A stretch of 64,000 nt of DNA from Massalongia carnosa (taxonomy: Eukaryota): positions 930,001-994,000 of the forward strand of contig OZ287082.1 in NCBI GenBank assembly GCA_965645245.1. Reading direction: 5' to 3'. A program made the translations under genes and the position numbers. Positions 9,489 to 58,687 of this stretch are shown piece by piece. Each line of letters starts with the position of its first letter. Position 1 is the first letter of the stretch. The notes beneath the pieces were generated by a model. It had not been told where the DNA came from. It ran no database searches and worked only from the letters and a program-made list of their open reading frames with translations.

Positions 9489-10071
9489 TGTGGGTCTCGA
9501 TTAGAGGAGTATTGCGCAGAGGGAACGTGAGGTACGATGCGAATATGAATGGCGTGGTTATCGTCTGCACAATATAAGTAAAGTCGCACGAATTGGAGGG
9601 AGGATCAAACAGTTCAGCTGATTCTCACCTTTGTCGGTGAGGTATTTAAGTTGCGTCGATGAAAAATCGTAAAGTGGGGTCGGGTTCTTTCAACGTAGGC
9701 GGCAATCTGCGCATTTAAGAGGCTGTTCAGAGAACAAGTCGGAGCATAGTAAAAGCGCACAGCGCAAGATGAGGTAAAAGTGAACGTTGATGCTCAACGG
9801 AAGGTGGGTTCCTTAGGAATTCACCACTGCACCCTGGCATTTCGTTGCCGAGGTTGCACTAGCACAGGGCGATCACTTTCACCCAGCCAGCTTTCTTCCC
9901 AAAACTGCATTGTTCTTTTCAAAGCTGTATAACGACCTGTCATAAAAGTATCTAGAAATTCATAAGAAGTTTTCTTCCAGTCCTGTTCCGATCCAGTCTC
10001 CAGCAGTACGACCCTCAATTCGCGACGAGACTTTGCCCGGCGTCTTCTGGCCCGGCGCCTTCTGTCTCGAG

Positions 10072-12504
10072 ATGGCCAACCTTTCACAAGACGATCGAAA
10101 TGTCATCGCAAAGCATCCTTTGGACAACTCTCTAGATCATTTACGGGACTCACTTCAGGCAGAGCAATCTTACGAACCTAGCTCGACTTCTTACGATGCT
10201 GCTGGTGACAATCGTGGTCAGGGACCCCTAAAGGCAGTCTCAAGACTTCTCAATACCTTGCAAGGCCACGATGTCGCCCTTACTCTTCGATCAAAGATCG
10301 CAGCCGGAGATCTAGCTTCTGAGTTATACAACCTCTTCAGACGTGTCCGAAATGGCGATTTCAACTATAAACACTACCTCGCGCTGTCACGCCTTGTCGT
10401 CAGAAAAGCCCCTGATGTCGACATCTGGAATGCCGTCTTCGACCTCATCACCACCGTCTCTCGAACGACCCCTCCTACAAGCATTCCTCTCTCGTGCGAC
10501 GGCACGCCCATCACGCACTCCTCCGCATCGCAGCAGGCTAGCGAACAAACTCGCCGTGAAGTGGAAAAAAGGGTTTTCGAGGAAATCATGGGCTGTACAT
10601 TCCGAAATGTGGAAGGATTCTTCCCGAAATACTTTGAAGGAAAAGATTGGACCGAGCGTACCAAGGAGATATATCGAGCCGTGCAACATCGACATGTCAA
10701 CGGCAGGTGGACCGATTTCCCTCATCCGCCGGTGCAGAACGCTCTTCTCGAATGGTGGTTCGCTTTCCAGAAGGAGTTTCTAGCCGACGCTCGAGGTGTC
10801 TACTATACAAGTGAGAGCAGCAAAGACCTCACAGGCGCTGAAGCTCGACGTCAACTTGATGTCTTTGTCAAGCCTAGCGGCAAAAACATTTCGAACACAG
10901 TACATGATTGGAAGGACGTTGAAGTGATTGGTGAACTTAGGGAGTCCGACAGAGAATGGAAAGTTAAATTGCTCCAACTTGGCAGGTATATGCGCGATGT
11001 CTTTGCCACTCAGCCAACTCGCCGATTTATTCACGGATTTACTCTCCTCGGATCTACCATGGAACTGTGGGTTTTCGACCGCTCCGGTCCTTACAGCTCA
11101 GGAGTCTTCGATATCCATAAGGAACCTGAGCAATTCATCAGAGCTATTGCAGGGTATACGATGATGAGCGACGAAGAGCTGGGCTTGGATACGTTCACGG
11201 ACCAGGACAAGGAATACCGATCTATCACTATTACCGAAGATGGGACTGACAAGGAGACAAGACTACAGCTTGAGCCGGATCTTATTGCATATCAGCGGGC
11301 AATTGTCTGTCGTGGCACTTCTTGCTTTCGTGCCGGTGTTTCAGGTTCTCAGGATTCGCGGTATGTTGTTAAATTCTCCTGGACATCTGATAAACGACAA
11401 TCAGAAGCAGATCTTCTCAGATTAGCACGCGAGAGAGGAGTAAAGGGAGTCGCCAAACTATTTGGTCACCGCTGCATCACCAATATCGCGGACATGCGCG
11501 AAGGATTGACTTTTACGAAGATGCATAACTTTCGAAACACCACGTTCAGTCCGTCCTTTTCGCAGTCTCAACCACAGAACCTCCTTTGTCAATCGTTCAG
11601 TCAGCTTCATGGTCTGAGCATCGCCGGTGGTTCCCCAAGAAAACGAAAGTCTGTAGATGCGGGAGGGAGGCCGTCCAAAAGATCAAGGTCCAACATCCAG
11701 AGATCCGATATGATCAAGCAGGAAAAGGAGGTAACAAAGACCGTGGAAGATACCCAGACAGCGAGTCTATATGGCCCCAATGAGAGTTCATTCGACAACC
11801 GCATCTTTCGCTGCTTAGTAATCTCCCCGGCCGGCCGGGGTATCCGTGATTTTCAGTCAACCAAAGAGCTTTTAGAGGCACTTCGCGATGCAATCAAGGC
11901 GCATAGATCCTTATACCTTGTAGGCAATATTCTTCATAGGGACATCTCAGAGAACAATATCATAATAACAGATCCAAAGAAAGCTGATGGCTTTACGGGC
12001 ATGCTGATCGACTTAGACCTTGCCAAGAAGATGAATAGCGGGCGAGGTGGCGCACGGCATCAGACAGGCACTATGGAGTTTATGGCGATTGAAGTGCTAC
12101 GCAGAGTCGCTCATACCTATCGGCATGACCTCGAGTCGTTCTTTTATGTGCTTCTATGGATCTGCGCTCGTCGTGCGTGGGAAAGGGAATTTGGGTGCAA
12201 GTTGGTGGATAGACCCAGGAAAAGCATTTTAACGAAGTGGTACACGGGCGATTATGATGATATCGCTCGAAGTAAACGAGGCGATATGGGTGTTGACGGG
12301 TTTGAGGAACTCTTGGAGGAACTTCCACAGATATTCGATTGTGTCAAACCCCTTTGTAGAGAGATAAGGGGTATACTATTCCCGTATAAGGATGGGCTGT
12401 TCACCGGAACCCCGCTGGATCCAGAGGAGCTATACGGGCCTATCCTTAAGGCATTCGATAAGGCTATAGCTGAGATAACCCGCGCGGAGGGGAGCTTGGG
12501 ATAA
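10072..12504 (+). CDS. FunK1-family fungal protein kinase (~810 aa, intact, no intron apparent)
   Basis: VIGEL, QPTRRFIHGFTL, WVFDRSG, RAIVCRGT, VVKFSW, LHRDISENNII, LIDLDLA, TGTMEFMAIEVL, HTYRHDLESFFYV. Confidence 0.92.
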   Translation: MANLSQDDRNVIAKHPLDNSLDHLRDSLQAEQSYEPSSTSYDAAGDNRGQGPLKAVSRLLNTLQGHDVALTLRSKIAAGDLASELYNLFRRVRNGDFNYKHYLALSRLVVRKAPDVDIWNAVFDLITTVSRTTPPTSIPLSCDGTPITHSSASQQASEQTRREVEKRVFEEIMGCTFRNVEGFFPKYFEGKDWTERTKEIYRAVQHRHVNGRWTDFPHPPVQNALLEWWFAFQKEFLADARGVYYTSESSKDLTGAEARRQLDVFVKPSGKNISNTVHDWKDVEVIGELRESDREWKVKLLQLGRYMRDVFATQPTRRFIHGFTLLGSTMELWVFDRSGPYSSGVFDIHKEPEQFIRAIAGYTMMSDEELGLDTFTDQDKEYRSITITEDGTDKETRLQLEPDLIAYQRAIVCRGTSCFRAGVSGSQDSRYVVKFSWTSDKRQSEADLLRLARERGVKGVAKLFGHRCITNIADMREGLTFTKMHNFRNTTFSPSFSQSQPQNLLCQSFSQLHGLSIAGGSPRKRKSVDAGGRPSKRSRSNIQRSDMIKQEKEVTKTVEDTQTASLYGPNESSFDNRIFRCLVISPAGRGIRDFQSTKELLEALRDAIKAHRSLYLVGNILHRDISENNIIITDPKKADGFTGMLIDLDLAKKMNSGRGGARHQTGTMEFMAIEVLRRVAHTYRHDLESFFYVLLWICARRAWEREFGCKLVDRPRKSILTKWYTGDYDDIARSKRGDMGVDGFEELLEELPQIFDCVKPLCREIRGILFPYKDGLFTGTPLDPEELYGPILKAFDKAIAEITRAEGSLG

Positions 12505-23474: not shown

Positions 23475-23643
23475 TGTAACGAAGAGAGATAGTGAATAGA
23501 TTTCTACCATTGCGCCGCCTGTCCTACTGACTAAAAGGCCAATACTTAGTCCGCAGACCAAGCTCTATTCTACTATAACTGGGACTCCTGCTATGTTCGC
23601 TATAGGTGCTGCCGTCCGCACCACGCATGGTCAAACCGTCACA
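23475..23643. mobile_element. solo LTR (169 bp), copy 1
   Basis: TGTAAC...GTCACA; TSD ACGAA; similar to 25137-25307. Confidence 0.9.
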
Positions 23644-23716: not shown

Positions 23717-25086
23717 ATGATGATGATTTATTCATACTCCGATATGTTACCGGCCGTAGGCCGGCCCATGCGGGCAATGCTATCTAAGTTATGTTATATG
23801 GAAAACCTTTTCCAGGTGTAAAAACCATATCCCTTAATACCTGTCCGATGTGACACCGGGTCGACGTCGGACAGGAGACGCAGAGCGAAAATCATATGAG
23901 AACTGTGACGCCTTGTGAGATAAGAAGGAAAAGAGAAGTAAAACTACTGTTAATTGTACAATAATGTAGATGCTAGTGAGAATTGGGTCAGTAGACCTGT
24001 TTTCATTAGCCAAGTAGTTAATATCTTTAGAGTTTTATACGTTTCGGTCAGCTGTTGATAGTTGTTCGTGCCAGCGGCGCAAAACATCTGTTCTCTATTG
24101 TCAATAAGTCTACAGAACATAACTACGTGTTCTGGAGATTGTCTGTGCCAGCCACATGGGCAGGCCGGTGAGGTGACGGCGGGGACCCGTCGCTGGTAGA
24201 GGAAGTCAGCTAGACCGATCTTACCGGTGCGGATCTGTGTTGTCAGGGCGCTTTCTGCCTTTTTTAGCAGCGTGTGTATTTTCAGTCGTTTTTTGCTCAG
24301 TGGGACTGATTGCGCTATGGAGGGTTCGGTGACGCGATTTTGATATGCACTCCTCGAGTCGTTCCAGACTTTCAGCTGTCGTGCTTTAATTGTCTGCATT
24401 TGTTTTTGACGAGCCAACGCTGCTACGGAGACTTCGCGGAGATGCGCTGGGGAGGGGTCGGACCATGGTGGGTGTGCTTTGGGTGGTTGAACGATTTTTG
24501 CGTCGATCAGTAGGTTTTTGGCCCAGGTGTGCTTCAGCTCTCCCGGAGTGGATTTTTGAAGGCGTTTGCGACCTGCCTTGCCTCGGAGTTTGTTAACTGT
24601 TTTGCTGCATGCGGAAGAAATGACCTTCGATTGACCTCCGGCTCGGAGTCGATATCTGGCCTGCGCCTGTAGCGTGTCGAGGTGTACATCTACGGGGGCT
24701 ATGTATGTCTCTGCATCAAGAACTGGAATGGGAGTGGCTTTAAAGGCACCGGTTATGGTGCGAAGGCAGTTGTTTTGCATAACTGAGAGCTTGCTCGTTG
24801 ACGTTTTTGACTTTTTGACTTCTTTGGGCATGTGCTATACGGTTGACCCGTATGTCATGACCGGACGCACTACAGCGCTGTAAACTTGCCTTGCTTTGGT
24901 GAAGGTGGCACCCCAAGTCGATGTGGAGATTTTTGTCAATGCCATGGATTGTTTAACCATTTTCTTTTGCGTTTTGCGAACGTGCGGTCCCCATTTCAAT
25001 TTGGTGTCAATTTGCAAGCCTAAGACTCTAATGTCCGTTTTTGGTTCAATTTCGGTGCTTGCAATGTTGATAGATGCAGCCATATT
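23717..25086 (-). mobile_element. 5'-truncated Tad1-like LINE (family B), ORF2 C-terminus and 3' UTR
   Basis: Highly similar to 52870-54188 plus 62635-62689; (CAT)n tail; in-frame TAG at 24835-24837. Confidence 0.92.
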
Positions 25087-25136
25087 ATTGAAATAGGTAT
25101 ATGGTTATAACTATATGGCTATGTAATAAATGACAA

Positions 25137-25307
25137 TGTGACGAAGCGAGATAGTGAATAGATTTCTACTATTGCGCCACCTGTCCTTCCCGACCAAAAG
25201 GCACAATACTTAGTCCGCAGACCAAGCTCTATTCTACTATAACTGGGACTCCTGCTATGTTCGCTGTAGGTCCTGCCGTCCGCACCACGCTTGGTCGAAC
25301 CGTTACA
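25137..25307. mobile_element. solo LTR (171 bp), copy 2
   Basis: TGTGAC...GTTACA; TSD GACAA at 25132-25136 and 25308-25312. Confidence 0.9.
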
Positions 25308-25315
25308 GACAATAT

Positions 25316-28300
25316 CTTTGGAAGGGGACTGATATCAAAGGATAGGGGTATTTGGCTTAGGAAGATAAGTGAAAAGACTGAATTCTAGATGATAGTTTAC
25401 TAGTCTGATATTCAAATCTGATAAAGAGCATCTATCTACATAGGAATTCTAGGCCCTATTTATAATGATATCTGACCCCAGAATCTCATTATTGATGCCT
25501 AGATTCCTTGATGTTGATAGATGCTCTTTATCAGATTTGAATATCAGACTAGTAAACTATCATCTAGAATTCAGTCTTTTCACTTATCTTCCTAAGCCAA
25601 ACACCCCTATCCTTTGATATCAGTCCCCTTCCAAAGGGTTATGAGCCCGGGTTAGTGCACACTGCCCGGTATTTTTCCTAAAAAAACCTCATAGATTCAT
25701 CAAACAATCATGTCGGCCAAAATGGGACAACTTACCTACGAAGTCAAGCCCTTATCAGGCCCCCAGAACTATAAGGAATGGAAAACGGCCATGGAACATA
25801 TTTTATCGGTGGACGGAATCCTGAAAGTGGTCAACGGCAAAGAGACGAAACCAATCGCTTCACCGAAAGAACCCGATCAAGGATCCTCACTAGAGGATAT
25901 CAAGTGGTATCGTAAACAACTTGATTCCTTCGACAAAAAGGTAACTAAATGGGAAGACAAGAATGAGAAGGCCTGTGGCCGGATCAAAATAACCTGCTCC
26001 AAAGAAGCCCTAGTGGAAGTAGAAAAACTCGACTCAGCAAACGACATATGGAAGAAACTAATGGAGTTCGACCATCCTGAGTCCACCGTCCTCAGAACTG
26101 CCCAGAGACAGTTGATCAGAGCATCCCAGTCCAATCATAAATCCGTTCAGGAATATGGTGCCTACATCAAAAAGGCTGGACAGGACTGTGACAACACCGG
26201 GAAGAAATTTGATGATTGGATGCTAAAAAACTTCTTCACTCATGGTCTCAATTCAGATCTAGAAACCTACATAATTCCTCAAGAACAACAAGCCGAGAAA
26301 GTCGGTAAACCCCTTTCGCTAGACGACATGATCAAAGTACTAGTGGAATACGAGGAAAGAATCAAGGATCAGGAACAAGAAGCAAAGGTTCTAACTCAAA
26401 AGAAACCAAAAAGAGAAGGAAATAAGTCAAAGAAACCTTGCGGTGGATGCGGAAACCCTGGACACGGCAAGGATAAATGCTATTACCTCAATCCTCATCT
26501 CAGGCCAAAGAGTTGGAAGCCTGCAAAAGGCAAAGAAGGTCTGGTAAAGGAAGACGAATCCGGCGACAACAAATCTTCAGAGTTTAAACCTACCATGATA
26601 GCCACACTCAAAATGGCAATTACCACCAAGAGTCTGAAGACTGCAGCTAAGGACGTCAATTGGTGGATGGATTCAGGAAGTGATGTGCATATCTCTTATG
26701 ATAAGAACCTCTTTTCAACGCTCAAATCCGTCAAGAAATCGGTGATGGGAATTCAGAATTCACCCCTGGAGATCCGAGGAACTGGAACGGTTATCTTACA
26801 ATGTAATGTTGAAGGTATTCAGAAACAACTCATTATGCAGAACGTTCATTACTGCCCCGATGCGGAATACAATCTTTTTAGCATAGGAACTGCAGAACAG
26901 AAAGGGTTCGAATTTACTATAAAAAATGGTAAAGTCGAGTGCTCAAAGTCAGGACAGGTGACCCTCACCGGCACCAGACATCAACAAGGTGCAACCTACA
27001 CTATTGACCTCTATGAACCGAAAACTCTGAAGATGTCTGATAGTAGTGTTTCGTGGACCAATTGGCATAAACGACTAGCCCATCTAAGCATCGACGACGT
27101 CAAAAGATTACCGGACATGGCCACCGGAATCGACGTATCAAATGCAACCAAATTGGAATCCACCGAATCCCATCCAGCGATATGTGAATCGTGTGCGATA
27201 GGGAAACAAACCCGAAATCTGGTGAGAATCCCAAGGGATAGGGCCACCAAGATAGGGGAAATCATCCACACCGATATAGCGGGCGGGGGGAAGTTGCCTC
27301 AAACCCTCGGCGGTGCCCGCTATGTCATGTCTCTGATAGACGATTATTCCAACTTCATGACTATTTATCTTTTAAAGAAGAAGTCCGAGGCCGAAAAGGC
27401 CCTAAAAGAGTTTATAAACTTCATGGAAAATCGACAAACGCCTGTACAAATTCTTCGAAGTGACAATGGAGGGTAATATTCCTCTAATCACACCCAAGAA
27501 TTATTAAAGAACATAGGCATTGAATGGAATCCTACCGCCCCACATAATCCCAATCAAAATGGTGTAGCCGAACGAAACTTTAGAACACTGTTCGAAAGAG
27601 TAAGGGCTATCCTTCACCATGGAAAAATGACTCGAGGATTCTGGGGGGAGGCAATCGGGTATGTGTGTTATCTCAAAAACCGAAGCCCCACCAAGCGACT
27701 AAAGGATAAGACTCCGTACGAGGTCTGGACGGGTAAAAAACCCGATGTCAGCAATGTGAGAATATTCGGATGCACAGCCTATCATTACAATGTAGACCCA
27801 TCAAAGAAGAAATTGGACGACCGCTCTATCAAGTGCAGATTTTTAGGAATCAGCGGCCAGAACCAATTTCGCCTATGGGACCCTTCAGCAAAGAAGGTAA
27901 TAATATCTGCAAATATTCTATGGGACGAGACCGATGCAGGTTGGTCGAAAGAAAATCTAAAAGATGAGGAATCAGAATTAGGAATCTTTTTATATTCTAA
28001 TACGGATGACGAATCTGCGGACACTAGTACCGCAATAGTTAGCGCTCCCGGGGAGAAAACTCCTGAACCAATCACAGCTGCCGAAGTGATCGAGGAAGCG
28101 AGCAACCTAACTGAATCAGGACTAGAAGAGGGAACCAAAGATAACGACATGGCATCTACTCAACTAATCACTGAAAATATCAGGGCAAATTTACCAATTG
28201 CACCCTGCATCTGAGTCGACATTAAGAAGAACTTCTAGACGCACTGAACGTCAGGACTATGCCAAAATCAGCGACCCCTACAAGAGAGGATTTGCACTCC

Positions 28301-30240
28301 GCGCTCTCAAAGCGACGGCGACAGACCACCGAGAACCGCAATCCTACGAAGAAGCCTTGAAGTCTGAATATTCCGATGAATATCAGAAAGCTATGGACGA
28401 GGAGATAGAGTCTCACAAGGAAAATAATACCTGGACTCTCAAGAAACCTCCGAAAAATGCTCACATACTACCAGGTAGATGGGTTTTCAAAATCAAACTC
28501 GGACCTTATGGGGAGATCACCAGATTTAAAGCCAGATGGGTGGTCAAAGGATTCCGTCAATTGGAAGGAATTGAATATGACGAGACCTTTTCCAGTGTCA
28601 TAAAAGCTATGATCTGGAAAGCCCTATTGGCTATAGCTGCTAAATATGATTTAGAAGCCGATCAAGTCGATATCATCACCGCATTCCTAGAAGCAACCCT
28701 CACCGAAGAAATATGGGTAGAGCAACCACACGGGTATGAAGTCCCACATCAAGCTTGCAAATTAAATCGAGCACTCTATGGACTCAAACAATCCCCGAGA
28801 GAGTGGTACGAATGCTTAACCATGTATCTGAGACAGAGAGGTTACAAACGGGTAAATGAGGATTACTCATTATTCGTCAAAGAAAGGATGATAGTTGCGA
28901 TATATGTTGACGACTTACTATTAATCGGACCCAGCAAAGACGACATCGCGAACCTAAAGAAGGAACTATCCGATCGATTTAGAATAAAAGACCTGGGACC
29001 AGTCAACTGGTATTTAGGCATGCATATCATAAGGGATCGACCTAATAGGACTATCTACATCAACCAAAAGGCATATGTGGAAAGACTCTTAGAGGCAATG
29101 GGTATGGCCAATTGCCACTCATGCACGACACCCATGAATGCAGATCTTCGAAAGGAAGATCATCAAGCCTCAAAAATAGAGGTTAAGGCCTATCAGCAAA
29201 TACTCGGATCATTGCTCTGGTTGGCAATTATGACCAGACCAGACATAGCATACTCCGTCAATAAGTGCAGCAGATACGCCAGCAACCCTGCACCGAATCA
29301 TGACGACGCCGCCAAAAGGATCGTCAGATATTTAGCAGGGACTCGAGATCTGGGCATAAAATTTGCTCCGAACCTCGAACAATCAGGGGAGTTAATCGGA
29401 TATACCGACTCCTCATATGGGGACTGCCTAGATACTAGGAGATCCACCTCAGGCTATATATTCATGCTCCATAACGGACCTATCAGCTGGGCAACCAAAA
29501 GACAAAGCATAGTCGCCACCTCCACTACCGAAGCGGAGTATATCGGCCAATGCAACGCTGGAAAGGAAGCAGTATATTTAGCTAAAACCCTGAAAAGCAT
29601 CGGGTATGGTGTCAACGGACCGATAAATATCAAAGCAGATAATCAATCGGCCATGAAACTAGCGGCAAATCCGATATATCACCCCAAGTCAAAACACATC
29701 GATATCCAATACCATAAGGTAAGGGAATTAGTGGATCATGGGGAGATTGAGTTGGATTATATATTTACTGAGGATATGGTGGCCGACGGCCTCACTAAAC
29801 CTCTGAAGAAGGCCAAACATCAGAAGTTCATCGAACAACTGGGCCTAAATAAGCCTAAATAGGTAATCAGTACGGCTTCATATGTCTCCAGAAGGGGAGC
29901 TTTGGATTCTGTCCAACATTCGCCACCTATGTTGTTGCCTACACTAATGCCTATGCTAGTGATATCTATCCTGATGCTTACACTGATGACGTTTATCCTG
30001 ATGCCTAAATGAAGGTAGCAATGTTGCTGGCTAAATAGGCAACATCAAGGAATCTAGGCATCAATAATGAGATTCTGGGGTCAGATATCATTATAAATAG
30101 GGCCTAGAATTCCTATGTAGATAGATGCTCTTTATCAGATTTGAATATCAGACTAGTAAACTATCATCTAGAATTCAGTCTTTTCACTTATCTTCCTAAG
30201 CCAAATACCCCTATCCTTTGATATCAGTCCCCTTCCAAAG
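25316..30240 (+). mobile_element. Ty1/Copia LTR retrotransposon with CT...AG termini and a rearranged (inverted) 5' LTR
   Basis: TSD AATAT (25311-25315, 30241-30245). PBS GGTTATGAGCCCGG at 25637. PPT AGAAGGGGAG at 29890-29899. 3' LTR at 29900-30240. Confidence 0.93.
25710..29862 (+). pseudogene. Copia gag-pol (gag CCHC, protease, integrase, RT, RNase H) with a stop at 27474-27476 and a frameshift near 28200
   Basis: CGGCGNPGHGKDKC; WMDSGS; WHKRLAH..CESC; HTD/SDNGG/VAER; KARWVVKG; LYGLKQSPREW; YVDD; YTDS; ADNQSA; KHIDI; MVADGLTK. Confidence 0.95.
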
Positions 30241-30254
30241 AATATAATATGTAT

Positions 30255-33200
30255 CGGCAAATTACTGAGATGACCCCCAAATAACCCCCCCATCTTGCCT
30301 GGGGGTTATTTGGGGGTCAATTACCGTAATATACACGTAATTTTGCTTCTGGCGCTGTCACGATGACCCCCAAGAACTGTAATTAATTGAAGGGGTCATT
30401 TGGGGGTCATTTGGAATATTGCGACCGCACAGTTAAATGGCACGCACGAGGAGAAGTCCATTGAGCATCGGCTACCCGATAAAAGCCTTGCTACTCCAAG
30501 AAAGAAGACATGATTACGGCGATAAAAACGAGCGACTAGATATCTGTAGCCCGATGATCGTGCGATATCGGGGGGTCAATCATAGGTGAAGTGACTGAAC
30601 CTACCAATTACAGCTCTATAACTTTCTGCTTTAAGTGTTATAGGCCAATGAAACTCCATAGAATGCTTAAACAAGGCATTTGGACTACGTGGCACTCGGG
30701 CTATCTAGCATTAACTCGGGACTTATTTGTGCATACCTTCGTCCATCATTTCTGCATACTTATGTCTCGTTCAATCTCACTATGGCCGAATCATCAACAA
30801 TGTCGCTTTATGTCGGTCAAGAGTGGGACGATAAATATGAGACAAGACAGGCGATCACTAACTGGCTTGCAAGCAAGGGTGAGTCATGGCGTGTTGAGAA
30901 GGCCGAGAAGAATAGATATCTAGTTAAGTGCGATCATTGTGACTTTCGAATCAGAGCAAGCTTGTCCAACAAAACTGGGAGATGTAATACTTAAATGTAT
31001 AAGAGCTAAGACAAAGTAATACTGACATTAGATCAGGGAAACTCACTAAAATGATCCCTCATACCTGTGCCATATCGAGCCACTCCGGCCATTCAGGTAG
31101 CAATGCTGTTCAGTATTTAGCCACCAACAAGACAAATCAAGCGCTTGTGCAATCTGATCATCGGGTTAAATCAAGGCATTTAATGACCGTCGAGACTTCC
31201 AGTCGAGGAAACAACACAAACTATATGGCGATGTGGCGCACAAAAGAGTTTCTCAAGATTAAGCGGTTTGGCAATATTAAGCAAAGCTTTCAATATATAC
31301 CTACATTCTTGTCAGCATGCGAAGAACAAAACAATACACGAACAGCATGGACAAATCTGGAGCTAGATGAGAACGGTTGTTTCAAACGATGTTGGGTACT
31401 GCCAAAGGCGACTGAGCGTGCTTTTCGTCATTGTCGTTCGGTGCTTCAGTGTGATGGTACCGCTTGCAAGACATCGGACGGGCTTGTGATCTTGTCTCTT
31501 GTTACTCAAGACGGTAACAACCAGGTATTGGAACTGGCGTGGGCATTGGTCCCAATCGAGAACAAAGATAACTGGATCTATTTTTTACGGGCAATGGCAT
31601 TATATATTCGATTTCGCTCGGGACGACAAGCGGTGATTATTAGTGATCGCAACAAAGGTATCAAACATGCAGTATCTGATCATTTTCCTGTCGCTTTAAG
31701 TGCTCATTGTTGCAAACATCTCGGAGACAATGTCGATAAAAAATGGAAGAAGACATATCGGAATCTTTTCTGGGATGCGGCCAAAGCTAAAACACAAGCA
31801 AAATTCAACACTATACTCAACAGAATTAGAGCGACGAGACCTAATTGCGCAGGCTATATTGAAGACATACCTCCAGAGCAGTGGGCTGTATATGCTTTTC
31901 CTCGTCCTCGATATGGTCAATTATGTTCTAATGCTCAAGAGTCGCAAAATAATATTTGGCTGGAGGCACGTCACATGCCCGCATTGCTTTGTCTCCATCA
32001 GATTTGGAACCAATGCATGGACAAACTTTATGAACGGCACAAGCTTGAACACAAGACAGATAGAGTCACTGATTATGCCTGGAGATGGATTCAAGATGGA
32101 CGGAAACAATCGGCCGAGTATACTGTTCAAAATTCTCGTCCTTTCTGCGGTATCGTCACTGATTATGCCTGGAGATGGATTCAAGATGGACGGAAACAAT
32201 CGGCCGAGTATACTGTTCAAAATTCTCGTCCTTTCTGCGGTATCGTCACTACTGGTACTGGAAGTCATCACATCGTGGATCTGGAAGCCAAGACGTGTAC
32301 TTGTCATGATTTTCAGGATTATGAAATGCCATGTGATCATGCCGTTGCGTTGTGTATGAAGCAAGAAAGAGAACCAGAGGATTTTGTCAGTCCCATCTTT
32401 ACAATCGCTCAGTACAAGGCAACATACCAGTCATTTTTACATCCTATTGATCTCAATGTTCTCGCAGCGGCCGATGTGAAACCACCAGAATTTGTAGTCC
32501 AGGCTGGTCGCCCAAAAATCAGACGTGAAAGAAGAAAACGATTTGATTTATCAAAGCAGAGGATGAGATGCTCAATCTGCAAGAGTTTCAAGCATAACAG
32601 GCGTACATGTGATCACTCGGGACCTTCCGCGAGTGACGTTTCTGCTAGTACTGCAAGTAGTAGATCCAAAAACTGCTTCTGTCTCTCAATCTAGTCACAA
32701 CGAAGATGAAGTTGATAAAGAGAATGACAATGACTCTAATGACAATAATAGCGACAGCAATCATGACGGCGAGAGCGACAATATGAGTGTTCATACTGAC
32801 ATAAGTGACTGGAATGGATTCAGTGATCGTTCTTTTGTTTTTAGGTCTCGCAGATTCTCGGCTCAAAACGATGAAGATATTGCGACCGAGAGCGACAAGA
32901 GTTTTACATCTCATCGCGACAAAAATATTACCCTCGAGAGTGAAATGAATTCCTCATCTCGATCTCAATCGTCGTCAATTGTAACAGACTCATCGGAAGA
33001 GACTAAGGAAGAGCAGAAGAACTATGCTCGTTGGGCTATTGGATGGCTAGATATGGACGAGGCACAGTTACAACAATTTCAAAGGTTTGATATGAATCAG
33101 ACGTTTGCTGGAACACTACAGGGACATAGAAATTACAAACGTCGCTTTCCAGAGGCGGCCGAAGAAGAAGCTCGCAAAAAACGAATACTTTATGCTAAAC

Positions 33201-34278
33201 AGGTACGTACTCACCTTAAGATTAATTCATGGCTAATCACTGAGAGCAGGGTCGAAGATATCTGACAGAGCGACAGTATCAAATTATCGTTCCTCATTTC
33301 GAGCATATAGCTCCAGCTCCATCGTCGCATACTTCAGTTCTTAGAAAGTTGTTCACCCGCCCATTATGGACGTATCCTCAAAGACGATGTCCTCTTCCTC
33401 TACGCATTCCATTAGGAGAGCCAACACCACTTTCGGAAGGGGAGAGAACACCAGTGGGCTATGATTCTGATGACTTTCCGTACGAGAAAGAAGATGCATT
33501 ATCGGAAGAGAGAGAGGAAGTCGAGAATACATTAGCGGAAGAGCGACAAGAAGTCGAGAATACATCAGCGGATGATGAGCGACAGGAAGCTGATAATATA
33601 CTAGCGGAGGAGCAAATTTGGAGCATGCTAGAGAAAGGTAAAGAACGTGACCGGGCACTGATCTCACCTCGTAAATCTAGATCTGGACGGATATTGAAAC
33701 CTACTGTTAGAGCGCAAGAAGCTTTAAGTTACACACAAAGCATGCCAACTTAGCGAAGGCCGCTTTAGAAAGCTCTAGAGAAGTGTCATTGACTGACTTA
33801 ATAAACAAGTCACCTCCTCGAAAACGACAAAGGCGAGGGACAAAGCCGAGTCAATAGATGGGTCTAGAGATTATCCTTATAGAGAGAAAGGATAAGCAAT
33901 CGTGTTTTCTGTCATGAAGTGACAGAGCATCTGCCGGTGTTTCATGTGCCACTTCTTCGGAGGCGATTTTTTTGGTGAAGGAATGACATCGAAACATGAT
34001 AGTCTGGGGATGGAAAATTAGATCATGATATTGTATTGTGATGTTTTCTGTATATTTTTGTATAGGTATCTAGTCGCTTTTCCTCGTGCTTGTCATTTAA
34101 TCGTGCGGTCGCAATATTCCAAATGACCCCCAAATGACCCCTTCAATTAATTACAGTTCTTGGGGGTCATCGTGACAGCGCCAGAAGCAAAATTACGTGT
34201 ATATTACGGTAATTGACCCTCAAATAACCCCCAGGCAAGATGGGGGGGTTATTTGGGGGTCATCTCAGTAATTTGCCG
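30255..34278 (+). mobile_element. Mutator (MULE) element with ~200-bp fold-back TIRs; no TSD found
   Basis: CGGCAAATTACTGAGATGACCCCC... at 30255 and its reverse complement ending at 34278. Confidence 0.9.
30782..32694 (+). CDS. MuDR-type transposase (DBD, MULE DDE, SWIM, Zn knuckle), probably disrupted; acidic C-terminal extension continues to ~33850
   Basis: QCDGT, TQDGNNQV..LAWA.V..ENKDNW..F, ISDRNKGI, HCCKHL, ESQNN, CTC..FQ...PCDH, CSIC...HN.RTC. The first intron is not resolved. Confidence 0.85.
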
Positions 34279-39655: not shown

Positions 39656-40461
39656 TACATGCATGCAGACATAAGTTTAAGTAGTCCGGTCGGAGCTTTT
39701 CTGGAAGCTCGACGCACTTCAGAAGTGCTAAAATAGCTCATGAACGGCCTCAAGCCCGCTGAGTCAGTGGGGGCTGACATTTCCGAAGTGCTAGTGTACA
39801 ACATAGTAGAAGCCCTCACCGGTCAGCAACGTGGCCAAGCCCAGCGCCATCCCTGTGCTATCTGCAAGTTGGGAAATGGCTCATGCTTTTTAATGTTGAC
39901 TCCTGACACCTTGAGCATTAGAACGTGGCAACGATACAGCTTAAGTAATTACCAGCCGCTCCCTAATAACCGCCTCTAAAATGTACCATAACTAGTATTC
40001 TTACGCTAAGTTTTTAACTAGGTTGCACTCGGAGCGCCATGTGCTGCTGGCTAGTCGCCATGTGCCGGTGGCTAGCTCTTGTAGTGGCGCTTTTGCTTAT
40101 CATTGGCCCCCAAAAATGATCCAACGTCGATGTCGGCTCACATCAGATCACCGATGCCAATACTGAGGTAACGAATTGATCACTTGGTGCATAATATAAA
40201 TAATGAAAGGGATGGGTCTTCTGTTTACTATCTGCAGAGATTTTATCTAAACTCCTAAGAATGCAAGCTAGCCTGATCTGGTAATCGCAGTCACCAACTG
40301 CCTGACCACAGACTAATATCAACAGGGAACTAGCAGATCTGCAGTCTAACCCAAAGATGTGGTAGTTGGACGGGAACCGTTGGAGATGCTTGTCTACGCC
40401 TGGAATGCACATGTAAGCATTAGGAAGCTTAAAGGTATCTTTACCCGACGAGATAAAAGAA

Positions 40462-43125
40462 GAGTACGGATACGTGGACACCCCTTAGGTTACCTGGACA
40501 CCCCCTGAGGTTACCTGGACGCCCCCCAGTGAGACACGGACACCCCCTTCCTAGAATAGATAAGAATCAAGGGTTCAGCCCTCTCACTTACCCATTTCGG
40601 GGTAAGCTCCCGAGTGTGCACCTCGGGAATTTTTTTTTCAACCGTAAACACCAACATTTTGGCACTTCGTAAACATCAACATCACCAACATTTTGACACT
40701 TCATCATGTCTGCACCACCTCCTGAAGGACTTGCACCCCTCGAAGATGAACCAGCTACTCCAACCAGACCACCTGGCCCTCTACCCCCTGGCGGACTTGC
40801 ACCCCCTGAGGATGGACAAAGTTTTGAAAGTCTGGAAGACCTGGTTCTACGAGTCAATGAGCATGCTGGTCGTCAAGGATACGCAGTCGTTTTGGGTCGA
40901 ACCAAGAAGTCGAAACTTAAGGTAACGAGAAAGACACGGCTGATATGTGATCGAGGAAGAAAAACCGACGGACCAAGAGGTCAGGATCGGCGACATACGG
41001 GTAGCCGAGAATTGAATGCCCTTTCTCTTGTGTGGCCACACGAGAAAACGACAGTGGTATCTGGTTTTTGGAGGTGGTCAAATCGACTCATAATCATGCT
41101 TCTACCTTCGCTGGTGCTCATCCAGCGTTGAGGAAATTGGCGATGGCGAAAGAGGTTAAAAGCGAGATTTCCCGAGCTCTGATCGTGCAAACAGCCCCTT
41201 TCAAGATTTTATCTAGTCTTCGTGTTGCTGATCCGACGACGGGAATCAATTTTGACGATCCAGAAAATCCCTACATCATCAATCCCTTATTCAAACCTCG
41301 GGATATCTACAACGTCAAAGCACAGCTTCGTCGCGAGACACTCGGCCCATTGACTCCGGTTCAGGCATTAATCCGAGAGCTGGATCAAGGAGATTGGACG
41401 TATCAGATGCAAAATGATGATCTAGATAGAATAACTCATTTATTCTTTATTAAGGGCTGTTCTCAACGACTATTGAAGACGAATTACGAGGTGTTGGTGA
41501 TGGACGCCACTTACAAAACCAACAGATATAAGATGCCCTTATTGATCATCAATGGTCAAACCGCCCTACATACCAACTTCTGTGTGGCATTTTGCTTCAT
41601 GGCCAAGGAAGCCACGTCTGATTATACCTGGATGTTGCAGCAATTGCGAGGTGTGTATGATGGGATGATGCTTCCTAACCCGATCGTCATAGTCACGGAC
41701 ATGGGAAAGAGTCTGATAGCTAGAATTGAGGATGTTTTCCCCGCAACCAATCATCTGCTTTGCTTATGGCACATCAATAATAACGTCCTGACCAATTGCA
41801 AGAAGAGCTTCGATACTAAAGAGGCGTAGGACTCCTTCTTCGCTGACTGGAAAACGGTCGTTTATGCCTCGTCAGAACCAGAGTTTTTGGAGTCATGGGA
41901 GCGATTCAGGATTCAGTATCAGGGTCAGGATCAATGTGTGGAATATCTGAACGACATCTACATACCCTTCCGACATCGTTTTGTCAAGTGCTATACCAGT
42001 ATGATTGCTCATCTCGAAACCACCACTACCTCTCGAGGTGAAGGCGGGCATGCAGTACTTAAGCGACAGCTAGGGTCATCATCTGGAGATCTTAAGACGG
42101 TGGTGGACGGAATCAATCTTCTATTGATCAATGAACTTCACAATCATCTGATTCGTCTTGATGAAGCGAAGGTAGGACTACCTATGGATATTCGCAAACC
42201 TATCTTTCAGGAAATCAGTCCATACGTCACTCCCTACGCTTTGAGAAAGATAATGCCTCAATACGAACGTTTGGTTGGTCAACCAACAGCTATTCCGGCT
42301 TGTACTGGAACGTTCAGCTTAACCATGGGTCTTCCGTGCAGTCATAAGATTCAGGAACGATTGTATGGGGATTGGGGGGGAAAGTTGCTATTGGAAGATA
42401 TTCATCCTCATTGGAGGTTTGATAGGACAGCCCGTGTGGCTATTGATAATCCTTATCTTCGGGTTCAGGCACCCGAAGTTGCTAGACCAAGAGGCCGACC
42501 TCCAGGTGCGGAGAATTTGAATAGAAGACAGCAAGCATTCGAGGCATCTACTAATCGTGATCCTTCCCTTTTCAAGCGGGTGGACCCGGATGCAGATCAA
42601 TCAGCCGTTCATCGAGCGGACCCGGCACCTGGTCGTGGACGAGGCAGACGGGGACGGGGACGGGGATCGGGACGGGGACGGGGACGGGGATCGGGACGGG
42701 GACGTGGACGGGGAGGTAGGGCTAGAGGAGGGGTTATAACGAGGGGATTGGCAGATAGGCTGACTGCAAATGACTCGGATGCGGGGACGGCGACAGGGGG
42801 GGGGGGGGGACAGCGACAGCAAGCGGAGATGAGGAGGTTATCATCATTACTTAGACCAAATGAGGCTTAGTTTCTAGAATCAGAGTCTGATTTGCAAAGA
42901 CAGTGCCAATCGACTTCGTTTCAGAAATTCCCGACCACTTTCAAAAGGTGAAGGAAAAAATTTCCCCGATATGCGCCCGGGAGCTTACCCTGAAGTGGGT
43001 AAGTGAGGCTGAACCCTTGATTCTTACCTATTCTAGGAATGGGGTGTCCGTGTATCACTGGGGGGTGTCCAGGTAACCTCAGGGGGTGTCCAGGTAACCA
43101 AAGGGGTGTCCACGTATCCGTACTC
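40462..43125 (+). mobile_element. Mutator (Hop-like) element; transposase 40706-42870 with a frameshift (~41010) and a TAG (41827)
   Basis: ~180-bp TIRs GAGTACGGATACGTGGACACCCC...; 8-bp TSD TAAAAGAA; motifs MDATYKTNRY, VTD, LCLWH, TTSRGEGGH, MGLPCSH; RG-repeat tail. Confidence 0.93.
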
Positions 43126-43608
43126 TAAAAGAAAGCACCAAAAAGCCTTTAACGGAACCCTAAACAAGCTGGAAGTAAGTTACTGTACTCCGTACTCTTT
43201 TAATCTAAGCCCACGTTTTCGTCTCACTTGCGGTTGTGTCAGAAGCCATGCCTGTCCTGTCAGATATTGTTCTGCTTTGTGAGCACAAGGCAGGGCAGCA
43301 AGGAAAGTTCCGTCCGGATGGTCGGGGGATTCGAAACGTCTTGGAACAGAGTAGCCGTTTTGACGGGCTGAAACGAGACAGGGCTCTCGTCCAACCGACC
43401 TGCCGGCTAGGTGTTCCCCTAATGCGGTGTTTAACGGGTTAGAAAGTAACCTTTTCCCCTTATGGATTAGCGCGCTATTCACCACAAAATGCTAAGACCT
43501 GCCTTAAATCTTGCCATTCATCGATTTTCCACTTTACTGTTCTTCTATGTGCTCGACAAGACTTGCATACCTTCTTATAACAAGCAATATCGGGCCTGTA
43601 GTAGCGAC

Positions 43609-52510: not shown

Positions 52511-54722
52511 TCCGAAAATCTTAAGATTCGATATTTTGAATTATAAGATTTTTTCAAATCAGTTTGAAATCGTTGTATGTTTTTAAATGTCATAAACTTC
52601 AATGAACGAAATTTTCTTGCTGCTTATTGTCAATTGACAAAAAATGTCGACATAAAAATAACTTTTTGTTAAGATTGTTTGGACATTTGTTCGCTTTATC
52701 ATTTTTATTTGCGATTGAGTATTTTAATTCAAACATGCCGCAAGATGTGGGCATTCTTAATGTTAAGTTCTTCGTTCTTTCTGATATATTTGTATGGAGC
52801 GTTATAGACGTTATAGGAAAACAAAATTTTATCGAGAATAATAAATCCCAATGCGTTCAGTCTTGATTAGATGATGATGATGATATATTCATACTCCGAT
52901 ATGTCACCGGCCGTAGGCCGGCCCATGCGGGCAAAGCTATCTAAGTTATGTTACATGGAAAACCTTTTTCAGGTGTAAAAACCATATCCCTTGATACCTG
53001 TCCGATGTGACACCAGGTCGACGTCCGACAGGAGACGCAGAGCGAAAATCATGTGAGAACTGTGACGCCTTGTGAGATAAGAAGGAAAAGAGAAGTGAAA
53101 CTACTGTTAACTGTACAATAGTGTAGATGCCAGTGAGAATTGGGTCAGTAGACCTGTTTTCATTAGCCAAGCAGTTAATATCTTTAGAGTTTTTGATGTT
53201 TCGGTCAGCTGTTGATAGTTGTTCGTGCCAGCGGCGCAAAACATCTGTTCTCTATTGTCAATAAGTCTACAGAACATAATTACATGTTCTGGAGTTTGTC
53301 TGTGCCAGCCACATGGGCAGGCCGGTGAGGTGACGGCGGGGACCCGTCGCTGGTAGAGGAAGTCAGCTAGACCGATCTTACCGGTGCGGATCTGTGTTGT
53401 CAGGGCGCTTTCTGCCTTTTTTAGCAGCGTGTGTATTTTCAGTCGTTTTTTGCTCAGTGGGACTGATTGCGCTATGGAGGGTTCGGTGACGCGATTTTGA
53501 TATGCGCTCCACGAGTCGTTCCAGACTTTCAGCTGTCGTGCTTTAATTGTCTGCATTTGTTTTTGACGAGCCAACGCTGCTACGGAGACTTCGCGGAGAT
53601 GCGCTGGGGAGGGGTCGGACCATGGTGGGTGTGCTTTGGGTGGTTGAACGATTTTTGCGTCGATCAGTAGGTTTTTGGCCCAGGTGTGCTTCAGCTCTCC
53701 CGGAGTGGGTTTTTGAAGGCGTTTGCGACCTGCCTTGCCTTGAAGTTTGTTAACTATTTTGCTGCATGCGGAAGAAATGACCTTCGATTGACCTCCGGCT
53801 CGGAGTCGATGTCTGGCCTGCGCCTGTAGCGTGTCGAGGTGTACATCTATGGGTGCTATGTATGTCTCTGCTTCAAGAACTGGAATGGGGGTGGCTTTAA
53901 AGGCACCGGCTATGGTGCGAAGGCAGTTGTTTTGCATAACGGAGAGCTTGCTCGTTGACGTTTTTGACTTTTTGACTTCTTTGGGCATGTGCCATACGGT
54001 TGACCCGTATGTCATGACCGGACGCACTACGGCGCTGTAAACTTGCCTTGCTTTGGTGAAGGTGGCACCCCAAGTCGATGTGGAGATTTTTGTCAATGCC
54101 ATGGATTGTTTAACCATTTTCTTTTGCGTTTTGCGAACGTGCGGTCCCCATTTCAATTTGGTGTCAATTTGCAAGCCTAAGACTCTAAACGCACCAGCTT
54201 GCTGGGGGCTAGTGAAGTTGTCACCGTGACGGACGGTACCAGGCGTGTAAGCGGGATAGGGCCGGACGCTAGCAGGGAGGTGAAAAACTCTTCACCTCCT
54301 CCATCCCCCCATCTCTTCTCTCTTTCCTCATCAACACTCATCAAAAATCGTGTTTCGCTGTTTCTCCCACCCGCCCTCTCCTACACAGTCTGTCGCTTAG
54401 ATAGATGGAGTATGTCTTGACCCCAGGGTTCGCATCTACAGCGTCCATGGACCCCGTAGCCTACCCGTTGCGGCTCCGTACCCGGCGCGGACGGCGCACG
54501 AACGGTGTCATTGTGACGAGACGAACTCGGTGAGATAAGATCAGGTGGTACGAAGTCTTTGCTATAGGTAGGCTATCGGATATTTACAAGACGTTCGACA
54601 AGGAAGAAAGAAAATCTCAACAGCGAAAGCAGAGATATAATCTTTCCGTTGATCGCGCTAACCATGCTGAGCCTAGCCCTCGCGTATCATTCAAGCCTTA
54701 GCTCCGTTACTTGATTCGGGTG

Positions 54723-57700
54723 CTAGCGAGGCAGTACCGTGACATCAGGTCTCCTCTTTAGGTTCGAGGCTCCGCGAGAACCTCGAGGTTTGGTAGGCCT
54801 CAATTGGTGATATTCTCGTAATAAATCTTCGCAGTGAGTGATGTCCTTTTCTTCGTTCCAACTAGGTGCGTCATGGCCGGCCCACTTAACAAGATATTGC
54901 AGTCGTCTTCGGAAAAATCTCGAATCAAGAATACTCTCCACCTCCCACTCTTCTTCACCTTCAACTTCAACCGGCGGGGCAGGTGGAGGAATTTGGCCAT
55001 CGTGTGGGTTCTGAGCAACCGGCTCTAGCAGAGAAACGTGGAATACAGGGTGTATTTTCATAGAGGTGGGGAGATCAAGTTCGTAAGCATACTTACTTAC
55101 TACTCGCTTGATGGTAAATCTTCCTAACTTCTTCCAATCCAGCTTTTTAGAAGGTCGCTTGGTTTTGATGTTCTTAGCATTCAACCAGACTTCGTCTCCT
55201 ACGCGAAACGACGGGGCGGGGGTTCTATGATAATTAGCAGTGGATTCATACCGAGCTTGAGCCAATCGCATTTCATCTTGAAGGTGGGCATTAATCTCTT
55301 CCATCTTGGTAGCAAATTCATCAGCATTGGTGAGCTCTGGGGAGGTGTTGGTGCGAGAGAGAGGCTCGAAACCTAGACGGGGGTGGAAGCCATAATTCGC
55401 TAGAAAGGGACTTGTCGTAGTGGTCTCGGAATCAACATTGTTGCTAGTGAACTCTGCCATTGGTAGCCATTCTTCCCAGTCATCTTGCATGTAATTTACG
55501 TAGCCTCTTAAATATGATTCCATGACTGCATTGAATCGTTCCGTTTGGCCATCTGTCTCCGGGTGAAAGGATGTGGATAGGGCCGACTTAATTCCTAGTC
55601 TTTCACATAGAGCCTTCCAGAATTCTGAGATGAACTGCCCTCCGCGATCCGAGACTATTGATTCGGGCAGGCCGTGTAATTTCCATACATTCTGCAGATA
55701 CAACTTGGCTAAATCGTGAGCGTTGGTAGTCTCTTTGCACGGTATGTAATGCTTCATCTTGGTGAGTCGATCAACTACAACTAGGATTGCGTCTTTCTTG
55801 TCACTACCGGATTCGGGTATGCCGCTTACAAAGTCCATAGAAATATCTCTCCAGCGTTGCTGAGGAATGGGCAGAGGTCTCAACACACCGTACTTTGGAT
55901 GACGGGAAGCTTTGCTACGAGAACATACGTGACAGTTCTGTACGTATCGTGCTACGAAATGATGGTACTGGGGCCAATAATAAGTTCGAGATAGCAAACC
56001 GAAAGTTTTGGCTCTACCGGGATGACCGGCGACAGGGCTATCGTGGTGTTCCTTGCATAGTCTGAGTCTCAAATCATGGAAATCGGGTACGTATAGGCGT
56101 TCGCGGTAATATAGTCTCCCATCTCGGTCTTCGCATTCGGCCAGAGTTATATCCTTGCTATGGCTAGTACCGTTTCGAAGAAGAGTCAAAATGCTATTGG
56201 GGAATGGGTCCAGCTCGTATCCTTGATTCATCAATTCCTCGATAGATTTCTCGGAGTCTTCGTGTTCGGTTTCCAGATCATTATCTGTATCAGCGTCATC
56301 GTTGGTAATATCGGTCAGGCGAGGCAGATTATTAGCCAGAAGTTCGAAATTATGGGGTTTTAGTACCACCTGATTCTGATGTTCCAGTCTCAGGTCCCCC
56401 TCTTTAGGAAGATCTCCTGATCTTCTAGTCAAAGAATCTGGTTTTTCTCCTTGTTTCCCTGGTCTGTAACCTATCTTAAAGTCGAATCGTGATAAAAATT
56501 CGGCCCATCTTGCCTGGCGCCTGCTGAGTTGCTTGGTGGTAGTGAAATACTCGAGATTCTTATGGTCCGTTATTACCTTTACTGGATGTGCTGCTCCCTG
56601 CAATTCGGGTCTCCATTCTTCAAAAGCTCTGATAATGGCCAGAAGTTCTTTATCATAGATTTCATAATTACACTCCGCTGGCGATAGTCTTTTGGAAAAG
56701 AAGGCTACTGGTTTAAGTACACCCTCTACCTCATACTGCGATAGTACTCCTGCGCTTACATAGTCGGAAGAATCTGTTTCCACTATGCTTTCCTTATCGG
56801 GGTCGAAATGAATTAGTATGGTGTCACTGGAGAACACATCCTTTAAGATTTTAAAGGCCTTTGCACACTCTTCGGTCCACACGAATGGCGTAATCTTTTT
56901 GGACATAGCGGTGAGGGGGGCAGCGATCTTCGAAAAGGATTTCACAAACCGTCTGTAGAAATTCGCAAATCCTATAAACGCCTGCACATCCTTGAGGTTC
57001 TCCGGGGTATTCCAGTTCTTTATGGTCTCTATTTTCTTAGGGTCCATTTTTATGCCTTTATCCGAAATAATAAATCCAAGATATATTGTCTCCGTTACAT
57101 GGAATTCGCATTTCGAAATATCCAGTTGTAACCCTGCTTTTTGCAGAGCCTTCAAAACTTTGGTGATATGACCCTTATGTTCTTTCATGGAACTACTGTA
57201 GATTAATATATCGTCGATATAAGCGGTACAGAATATATCGAGATATTCTCGTAAAACATCATTGATATAATGCTGAAACGAACTGGGTGCATTGGCGAGA
57301 CCGAAGGGCATAACGAGATATTCAAACAAACCGTATCTTGTCCGAAAGGCGGTTTTCCACTCCTCTCCATAGGCCATACGAAGGCGATTGAATGCGGCGA
57401 CTATATCTAGCTTAGTAAAAATGCATGCTTTACTCAGGCGGTCTAGAGTTTCTCTGATCAGGGGCAGGGGATATCTGTTTTTGATAGTCATAGCGTTCAA
57501 TGCTCTATAATCAACGCAAAAGCGCAGGCCTCCGCCCGGCTTTTTGACAAACAGTACTGGGGACGCGGCAGGGGAAGAACTTGAACGAATAAATCCTTTC
57601 TCCAAATTCTCGGTAAGATACTTCTGCAGTACCAGCAATTCATCTCGGCTCATGCCATACAAGGGTCCATACGTGGGTTCTTTCCCTTCCATCAGCGGAA

Positions 57701-58687
57701 TAGTGTGGTCATAGCTACGGCGTTCGGGCAGTTTATCAGCTTCATTCTTGGAAAATACATCAAGAAATTCGTGATACTCCGGCGGCAATATTGTAGCGGG
57801 ATCAACTTCCGGTTTCGGGGTCAGGGCTCGTTCAATATCTCTAAGGTTCACGGTAAATAGTTCGCAGTCCTTTTTCCGCGCAAGACGGACAAAAGGGGCG
57901 GCTCCTATCATGCAGATATTCAGGGGTTTCTTGATCTCGGGTTTCTCGGTCTCAGGTTTCTCGGTCTCGGGCAGGGTCTTGGGTCTTGGGTCTGGGTCTG
58001 ATTGGTCGAAGGAGGGAGCGCTAGACCTCTTCAATTTAGCGCCCTTTCTTCAGACCGGCCGGGCTGGTCTGAAGCGGATGTTTGTTGTTCCGGACCAGTG
58101 ACTTTCGTGACTGCGGGGTGCTCCTTCTCTGCACGAAGTTCTGGAACGTTGCTTATTCCGACGACAGTGTTGGGCTCATGATTCTCGAGGCAGTGCTGAA
58201 GACAGTATGGTGACGTGAACGAGAGAGTGTTTCCAGCCCATCGTATGCTGGTGTCGTGTATCTGTAGCCACTTGATCCCTAGAACGATGGGGTAGTGGCC
58301 CAAATTGGTGACGAGAAGGTTGGCGGGCTCGGAATGCGTGGCGATTTGAAGACGTAACTTGGCTAGGTGAGTGATTTCACCAGAGGAGATGGGTTGTCCA
58401 TCGGCTAATTCGAGGATACGAGATTGCTTCAAGGGAGACAGGGGCAGGGAATGACGGCGCGCGAACGAAGAGTCAATAAAAGCAAAACCAGATGCTCCAC
58501 AGTCAACTAGTGCATAGGTCTTTATTTGACGATTACCTTTGGATACAACCATTGATATCACCAAATGTTTGCCATCTAATTCTTCCTCTGGCAAAGGTTT
58601 GGTGGACAAGGAAAATGCTGATATTGAAATACACTTGTTCCGTGTTGGTCTCCGAACACGACTTAGTTCGGAGACTGTACTTTTCCC
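54723..58687 (-). CDS. Gypsy pol (protease, RT, RNase H, integrase, chromodomain), with a frame change between protease and RT near 58040
   Basis: ALVDCGA; RFCVDYR; MPFGLANAP; YIDD; ETDSS; HHCC; SDRG; TDGQTER; HPVFHVSLL; EWEVESIL..QYLVKW. Confidence 0.93.

Follow-up and report, generated by a model that had tools for sequence, protein, structure and literature searches.

Which ends does a retroviral-type integrase join when the long terminal repeat (LTR) of its element does not run from TG to CA? The question is raised by an insertion in a window of 64 kb (64,000 nt of contig OZ287082.1 from Massalongia carnosa), for which the original prediction described a copia element with LTR ends CT...AG. 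The stretch 25316–30240 of this window is a Ty1/copia retrotransposon on the + strand (Table 1). Its copia identity is borne out by the order of the Pfam domains in the reading frames, namely Retrotran_gag_2, Pol_BBD, gag_pre-integrs, rve, SH3_retrovirus and RVT_2, and by collinearity with P0126, an intact gag-pol of 1379 aa on a 4319-nt contig of one public run. In a tblastn comparison, P0126 aligned collinearly to the window copy in two frames with 99.5% identity. The window gag-pol is broken twice, by a stop codon at 27474–27476, which directly follows the integrase's second catalytic Asp motif, and by a one-base length difference in the CCC run at 28203–28205. This length difference exists relative to P0126, and also relative to all four of the public runs compared. 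Besides the stop codon and the CCC run, six further residue differences separate the window copy from P0126.

Table 1. Features of the copia insertion, in window coordinates; the borders of R and the transcription start of the LTR are guesses based on the TATA box alone
Feature	Position	Strand	Evidence
Left target site duplication, AATAT	25311–25315	none	Motif check and boundary scan
Inverted copy of LTR 141–341 (part of U3, R, U5)	25316–25516	−	201/201 reverse complement of 30040–30240
Direct copy of LTR 222–341 (R-U5-like), ends TCCAAAG	25517–25636	+	Alignment to 3' LTR
Primer binding site (PBS)	25635–25648	+	12-mer GGTTATGAGCCC at 25637–25648 adjoins LTR
gag-pol (gag, protease, integrase, RT, RNase H), broken	25710–29862	+	Pfam, tblastn
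Polypurine tract (PPT), AGAAGGGGAG	29890–29899	+	Adjoins 3' LTR
Sole complete LTR, 341 nt, CTTTGGA...TCCAAAG	29900–30240	+	PPT, terminal repeat, contig start in run X1
Dyad-symmetric LTR segment around TATA box	30040–30120	+	Arms LTR 141–160 / 203–221, hairpin fold
TATA box, TATAAATA	30093–30100	+	Inside LTR dyad
Right target site duplication, AATAT	30241–30245	none	Second tandem AATAT directly after

The landmarks from which CT...AG had been read are all found in the window. The PPT runs into CTTTGGA at 29900 with no spacer, the LTR closes with TCCAAAG at 30234–30240 and passes directly into AATAT, and on the 5' side TCCAAAG at 25630–25636 abuts the 12-mer of the PBS. The left AATAT is followed by CTTTGGA at 25316, and the duplication lies outside CTT and AAG on both sides. 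The inverted repeat at the termini of the 3' LTR is perfect and exactly 7 nt long. It had been argued that three separate landmarks place the ends at CT/AG; each of the three is sound, but two of them describe one LTR end, that of U5, twice. The LTR termini are CT...AG and not the TG...CA by which Ty1/copia elements are recognized, and the target site duplication has the 5 bp of that group. The dinucleotides TG and CA are present as TGGA...TCCA, positioned symmetrically 3 nt inside each LTR end. Two controls in the same window, a gypsy element and a solo LTR, have canonical TG...CA ends, indicating that TG...CA is the rule in this region of the genome.

Under the local base composition, the chance of a 5-nt match between the flanks is ~0.001. 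The duplication was also sought without presuming the ends, by combining every left boundary with every right boundary (each within 10 nt) and with lengths of 4–6, which gave 1323 combinations. Identical flanks occurred in 6 of the 1323, every one a version of AATAT. In the 5-nt matches the left boundary was always CTTTGG; the right boundary was CCAAAG, or lay displaced from it by the tandem AATAT. No duplication that fits TG...CA at +3/−3 was found among the 1323 boundary combinations. The scan supports CT...AG, with a 5-bp duplication, as the integrated ends of the window copy.

The 5' copy had been taken for a normal LTR, and this part of the prediction fails. The segment 25316–25516 is the U5 side of the LTR inverted, and only the last 126 nt of the 5' side are direct, forming with the 3' LTR a direct repeat of 98% identity. 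Within it, 25517–25636 copies 30121–30240 with a single mismatch, C at 25602 versus T at 30206; at this position the inverted arm agrees with the distant 3' LTR and not with the adjacent direct arm. The element has one complete LTR, its 5' side being made of the last 120–126 nt in direct orientation plus the 201-nt inverted copy, and a second copy of LTR 1–140 (29900–30039) is absent from the 64-kb window. The outer end of the inverted copy is the U5 terminus, and the arm stops exactly there, beside the duplication. Because 25316–25516 reverse-complements 30040–30240, the CTTTGGA at the left is an inverted U5 end rather than a U3 end, and both integrated termini are therefore U5 termini. The U3 start of the LTR at 29900 adjoins the PPT, not host DNA, in this copy.

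It is noted that the insertion carries perfect terminal inverted repeats of 201 nt at its two ends, and that the inverted match, as extended by BLAST, reaches 218 nt (97.7%) through flanks that are partly complementary. The flanks 25300–25315 and 30241–30257 are reverse-complementary at 12 of 16 positions, with one gap. Since they are 75% identical while the arms are 100% identical, the flanks lie outside the inverted duplication; their complementarity could be due to chance or to a preference for palindromic targets.

The internal junction of the fold-back lies within a symmetry of the LTR itself. LTR 141–160 is an imperfect reverse complement of LTR 203–221, and the junction 25516/25517 falls at the end of this imperfect homology of ~20 nt, the LTR's own dyad. 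The junction carries the dyad version of the inverted arm, as is expected if the 3' end of the inverted arm served as primer. The 87-nt minus-strand DNA of 30040–30126 folds at −14.9 kcal/mol (z = −5.5), and 0 of 200 shuffled sequences were as stable. In our reading of the fold, the 3' end of the hairpin is paired save for its last two bases, where a T faces T and the terminal G faces C. The next template bases of the hairpin would give exactly ATAGAT, as is found after the junction. When the whole 201-nt strand was folded, the priming hairpin was absent from the lowest-energy structure.

The structure of the copy, its duplication, its capacity to form a hairpin and its PBS match are shown by the window sequence; from them we infer an order of reverse transcription events. 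We propose, with a probability of roughly 0.55, that the insertion is a young defective copy of an ascomycete Ty1/copia family with LTR CTTTGGA...TCCAAAG, in which a self-primed minus strand gave rise to a U5/U5 cDNA that became integrated. The nascent minus strand would have made its first jump and copied 81 nt past what later became the direct-copy stretch, which would bring its length to 201 nt and its 3' end to LTR 141. It could then anneal through the internal dyad of the LTR, by snapping back on itself or by pairing with a sister minus strand, after which synthesis would run back across R-U5 and enter the tRNA primer. The extended product would end R-U5-PBS and could substitute for plus-strand strong-stop DNA. 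After the second jump, the finished cDNA would have a U5 terminus at both ends, the left end being the 5' end of the minus strand, and integrase would insert this U5/U5 molecule and make the AATAT duplication. One template switch followed by run-off at a natural DNA end would bring the inverted arm to a stop exactly at the terminus, as observed. A counterpoint is the arm difference at 25602, which a pure snap-back does not predict; to explain this single mismatch one has to invoke a mutation after the event, an error in copying or a sister strand as template. A contig of the public run X14 breaks at 30205, which suggests that both alleles of 30206 occur in X14.

Three other routes to such a structure do not fit. 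Had a second insertion left an inverted solo LTR, the duplications would be unmatched and the inverted copy would not be truncated at LTR 141. From an inversion between inverted LTRs, unmatched duplications and an inverted copy not cut at LTR 141 are expected. A minus strand that read to the 5' end of the RNA and then jumped should leave the dyad at the junction in its direct version, and the inverted version is found.

Public runs that contain the element carry the labels of lichen metagenomes, biocrust metagenomes and three coded organisms. The contigs of four public runs were compared with window positions 24900–30700; the listing covers 32 of the 5492 pieces and 24 of the 216 loose ends. 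The fold-back junction is not among the 32 of 5492 pieces listed, from which its absence from the runs does not follow. In the run X1 the contig 29900–30131 is unbranched through 30040, and in X14 a contig over 30047–30205 is unbranched through 30120. The fold-back could be confined to this genome, or the assembly could be wrong at this point.

The fold-back could instead have arisen after integration. A normal two-LTR insertion could have had its 5' LTR remodelled later by template switching in replication or repair, with a switch at the LTR quasi-palindrome, copying of the opposite strand and a return at the 7-bp terminal repeat. Both junctions indeed lie at short homologies, the 7-nt CTTTGGA and the imperfect dyad; LTR contigs among the run pieces listed look normal and lack the fold-back junction; and the duplication fits equally, the left end beginning CTTTGGA in both models. 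We nevertheless regard later remodelling as unlikely. It needs two switches, compared with one plus run-off for the cDNA route, the replaced stretch ends precisely at the LTR terminus, and the inverted arm matches the 3' LTR at 30206 instead of the direct arm next to it.

The fold-back could also be an error of the assembly, chimeric or mis-polished, the true locus having a normal 5' LTR with CT/AG unaffected. The missing junction among the pieces listed agrees with such an error, and the one-base difference in the CCC run at 28203, by which the window departs from all four runs, is of a kind typical of long-read assemblies. Mis-joins, however, need long shared words, and the joins here rest on 7 nt and on an imperfect homology of 20 nt; nor would a random chimera be expected to hit the exact LTR terminus beside a matching duplication. 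An assembly error is thus improbable in our estimate. It should be mentioned that the CT/AG reading of the 3' LTR, the PPT and the PBS is unchanged whether the fold-back is private, arose by later switching or is an assembly error.

The same runs bear on whether CT/AG belongs to the family rather than to this copy. Among the pieces listed, internal contigs end at 29927 (X1) and at 29929 (X14 and X16). The 232-nt X1 contig 29900–30131 begins exactly at 29900, another X1 contig begins exactly at 25316, the inverted U5 end, and an X16 contig begins with the inverted U5 end CTTTGGAAGGGA. The contigs presumably come from a de Bruijn-graph assembler with words of ~31 letters. With such words, and with the sequence to the left of 29900 differing between copies, contigs would break where they are observed to break; if the repeat started at the TG at 29903, the breaks would fall 3 nt further right. 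The boundary of the repeat in three runs is accordingly placed at 29900 and not at 29903, which rests on the assumed word length of ~31 and on the 32 of 5492 pieces listed. Contig depths, which are rough means taken from those pieces, are 1557 for the LTR versus 532 for the internal region in X1, 4471 versus ~1500 in X14, and 149 versus ~40 in X16. LTR contigs are thus ~3 times deeper, implying more U3-bearing LTRs than internal regions, beyond what a copy such as this one would supply. From one insertion with a readable duplication together with the contig break points, CT/AG looks like a family trait.

Searches for further copies gave the following. No contig joining both flanks across the element is among the pieces listed, and an empty site is not implied by this. 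A 28-nt mid-LTR pattern had 0 matches in the metagenome contig collection, and a 23-nt LTR-end pattern had 0 matches in the genome contig collection. For relatives of the RT protein, 0 were confirmed of 113 pattern matches in metagenome contigs, 30 in viral contigs and 24 in genome contigs.

The PBS had been read as the half-tRNA type that pairs with initiator tRNA-Met, and this holds: the final 14 letters of a probe against yeast initiator tRNA-Met recur exactly at 25635–25648. The probe, oPA1732, recognizes yeast initiator Met-tRNA specifically, as stated in PMC11230868. These 14 nt are complementary to the anticodon arm of yeast initiator tRNA-Met and not to the tRNA 3' end; the comparison is with the yeast tRNA, from which the host's own may differ. 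A tRNA scan and an Rfam search of the 64-kb window each gave 0 matches. The PBS suggests that the family is primed via the anticodon arm of initiator tRNA-Met, like copia and Ty5. Beyond the 12-nt match, the next two bases of the yeast tRNA can pair with the terminal AG of the LTR (25635–25636), and the unusual terminal dinucleotide might therefore have originated by a shift of the LTR/PBS border.

With no spacer between the LTR and either the PPT or the PBS, blunt cDNA is to be expected, and integrase would join an AG-3' end. From this arrangement we infer that the integrase of the element may have a changed specificity, with a preference for AG-3' ends. The substitution proposed for the origin of the CT/AG ends, in which TGTTGG became CTTTGG, is no better supported than an alternative in which TG/CA was kept 3 nt inside and CTT/AAG was retained. 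A bolder reading is that of a lineage of fungal copia elements whose integrase joins blunt, unprocessed AG-3' cDNA ends and needs neither the first T nor the CA-3' retained by nearly all LTR elements, the TG/CA 3 nt inside being relics; the insertion would then also show that concerted integration in vivo needs no more than two U5 ends and that a minus strand primed on itself can do the work of plus-strand strong-stop DNA. We hold this bolder reading tentatively, at a little under even odds.

The inner dinucleotides invite the opposite reading, that integrase recognizes the TG...CA 3 nt inside and that CTT/AAG are extra bases, as at retroviral cDNA ends, kept in an aberrant copy only. Such a scheme would account for the symmetric placement of TGGA...TCCA 3 nt inside both ends, and, since the terminal AG can pair with two further bases of yeast initiator tRNA-Met, these letters could be primer-derived. 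We find it very improbable, since the inner TG...CA is flanked by no duplication, the shared repeat starts at 29900 in three runs, so that other copies carry CTT as well, and the X16 contig begins CTTTGG. That the fold-back is the normal architecture of the family, with inverted terminal repeats like those of DIRS elements, is hardly credible despite the 201-nt perfect inverted repeats at the insertion ends, given that the element encodes a DDE integrase (rve core) and no tyrosine recombinase, that it has a 5-bp target site duplication where DIRS-like elements have none, that a full LTR follows the PPT, that the U3 part is ~3 times deeper than the internal region in the runs, and that LTR contigs are unbranched there at the junction positions.

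We have compared the window element with known systems. Drosophila copia and yeast Ty5 belong to the genus Hemivirus of the Pseudoviridae. Hemivirus is listed for copia in PMC3601003, and according to PMC10886601 both Ty5 and copia are primed at the anticodon loop. The window element resembles these two in its order gag-PR-IN-RT-RH, its 5-bp duplication and its PBS for the anticodon arm of initiator tRNA-Met. In contrast to them, it ends CT...AG instead of TG...CA, and its host is a lichen or biocrust ascomycete.

Ends other than TG...CA have been described in plants. According to the accessible text of the LTR_retriever preprint (10.1101/137141), they include those of Tos17 (TG..GA), AtRE1 (TA..TA) and TARE1 (TA..CA) as well as seven LTR_retriever motifs, and the first T alone is invariable. 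Rosaceae families with TG..TT and AA..CA ends appear in the accessible text of PMC5659011. As far as these two texts go, non-TGCA elements are mostly plant copia elements with short LTRs and 5-bp duplications. The plant motifs named there keep a TG or CA dinucleotide or the first T, whereas the window element changes all four bases, and CT..AG is not among them; the host here, moreover, is fungal. A second precedent comes from Drosophila, where LTRs of the Zam/gypsy group of errantiviruses lack TG..CA and have the motifs AGTTAYRK...TAAYT, as given in the part of PMC3601003 that was available. The Zam-group LTRs indicate that integrases joining non-CA ends exist. These elements differ from the window element in belonging to the Metaviridae, in having the integrase after RT, in their motif and in their animal host.

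For the fold-back, the nearest parallel is the self-priming of HIV-1 minus-strand strong-stop DNA, in which the 3' end folds on a hairpin and RT extends it back (PMC6088434). In HIV-1 this is a dead-end product in vitro, suppressed by nucleocapsid protein (PMC6088434). In the window element, by contrast, such a product seems to have reached completion and undergone integration in vivo, and its hairpin is located in U3/R, around the TATA box. Our literature search, with Repbase and LTR_retriever Table S2 outside its scope, returned no paper on CT..AG ends or on an integrated fold-back LTR, which does not imply that none is in print.

LTR annotation pipelines prioritize TG...CA or a short list of exceptions, as described in the available portion of 10.1101/137141. 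A CT...AG family would be missed or mis-bounded by them, and the genomes of lichen fungi are poorly curated. If the reading is true, a copia integrase that joins AG-3' would widen the known substrate range of retroviral-type integrases. The fold-back copy would be a rare fossil of an integrated reverse transcription error and bears on the need for a U3 end. Both CT/AG and the fold-back are of interest chiefly to specialists in mobile elements.

The family host is an ascomycete present in lichen and biocrust samples. The nearest named relatives of the RT are from Fusarium, Pyrenophora and Claviceps, at 44–50% identity, and the same window holds a Pkinase_fungal gene at 9946–12504. In X16, which is coded organism C, 106 of the 137 base changes relative to the window over 25626–30199 are C>T (52) or G>A (54), an excess that is the signature expected of fungal repeat-induced point mutation. 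The flanks of the window insertion are absent from X16.

The surrounding region is a nest of mobile elements. A solo LTR of 171 nt (25137–25307, TGTGACG...CGTTACA, duplication GACAA) lies 8 nt to the left of the copia insertion, with a second copy at 23533–23643. In the runs its summed contig depth exceeds the depth of the copia element by a factor of 100 to 1000, and many different loose ends occur at 25137 and 25307, which marks it as a very high-copy repeat. To the right, a Mutator-like (MULE) transposon at 30255–34278 with 202-nt inverted repeats (97%) starts 14 nt from the copia insertion. No target duplication is evident at the ends of this MULE, and its transposase frame contains a perfect 90-nt tandem duplication at 32065–32244. 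A second MULE, with 120-nt inverted repeats (96%), occupies 40461–43126. A Ty3/gypsy chromovirus on the minus strand at 54512–60113 contains RVT_1, RNase H, Integrase_H2C2, rve, SH3_Tf2-1 and Chromo domains in a reading frame split into three pieces; its LTRs of 233 nt are 100% identical, run from TGTGAC to GTGACA and are flanked by the duplication GTCAT. Beyond it, a hAT-like pair of frames at 60301–62382 has DUF659 and a hAT dimerisation domain.
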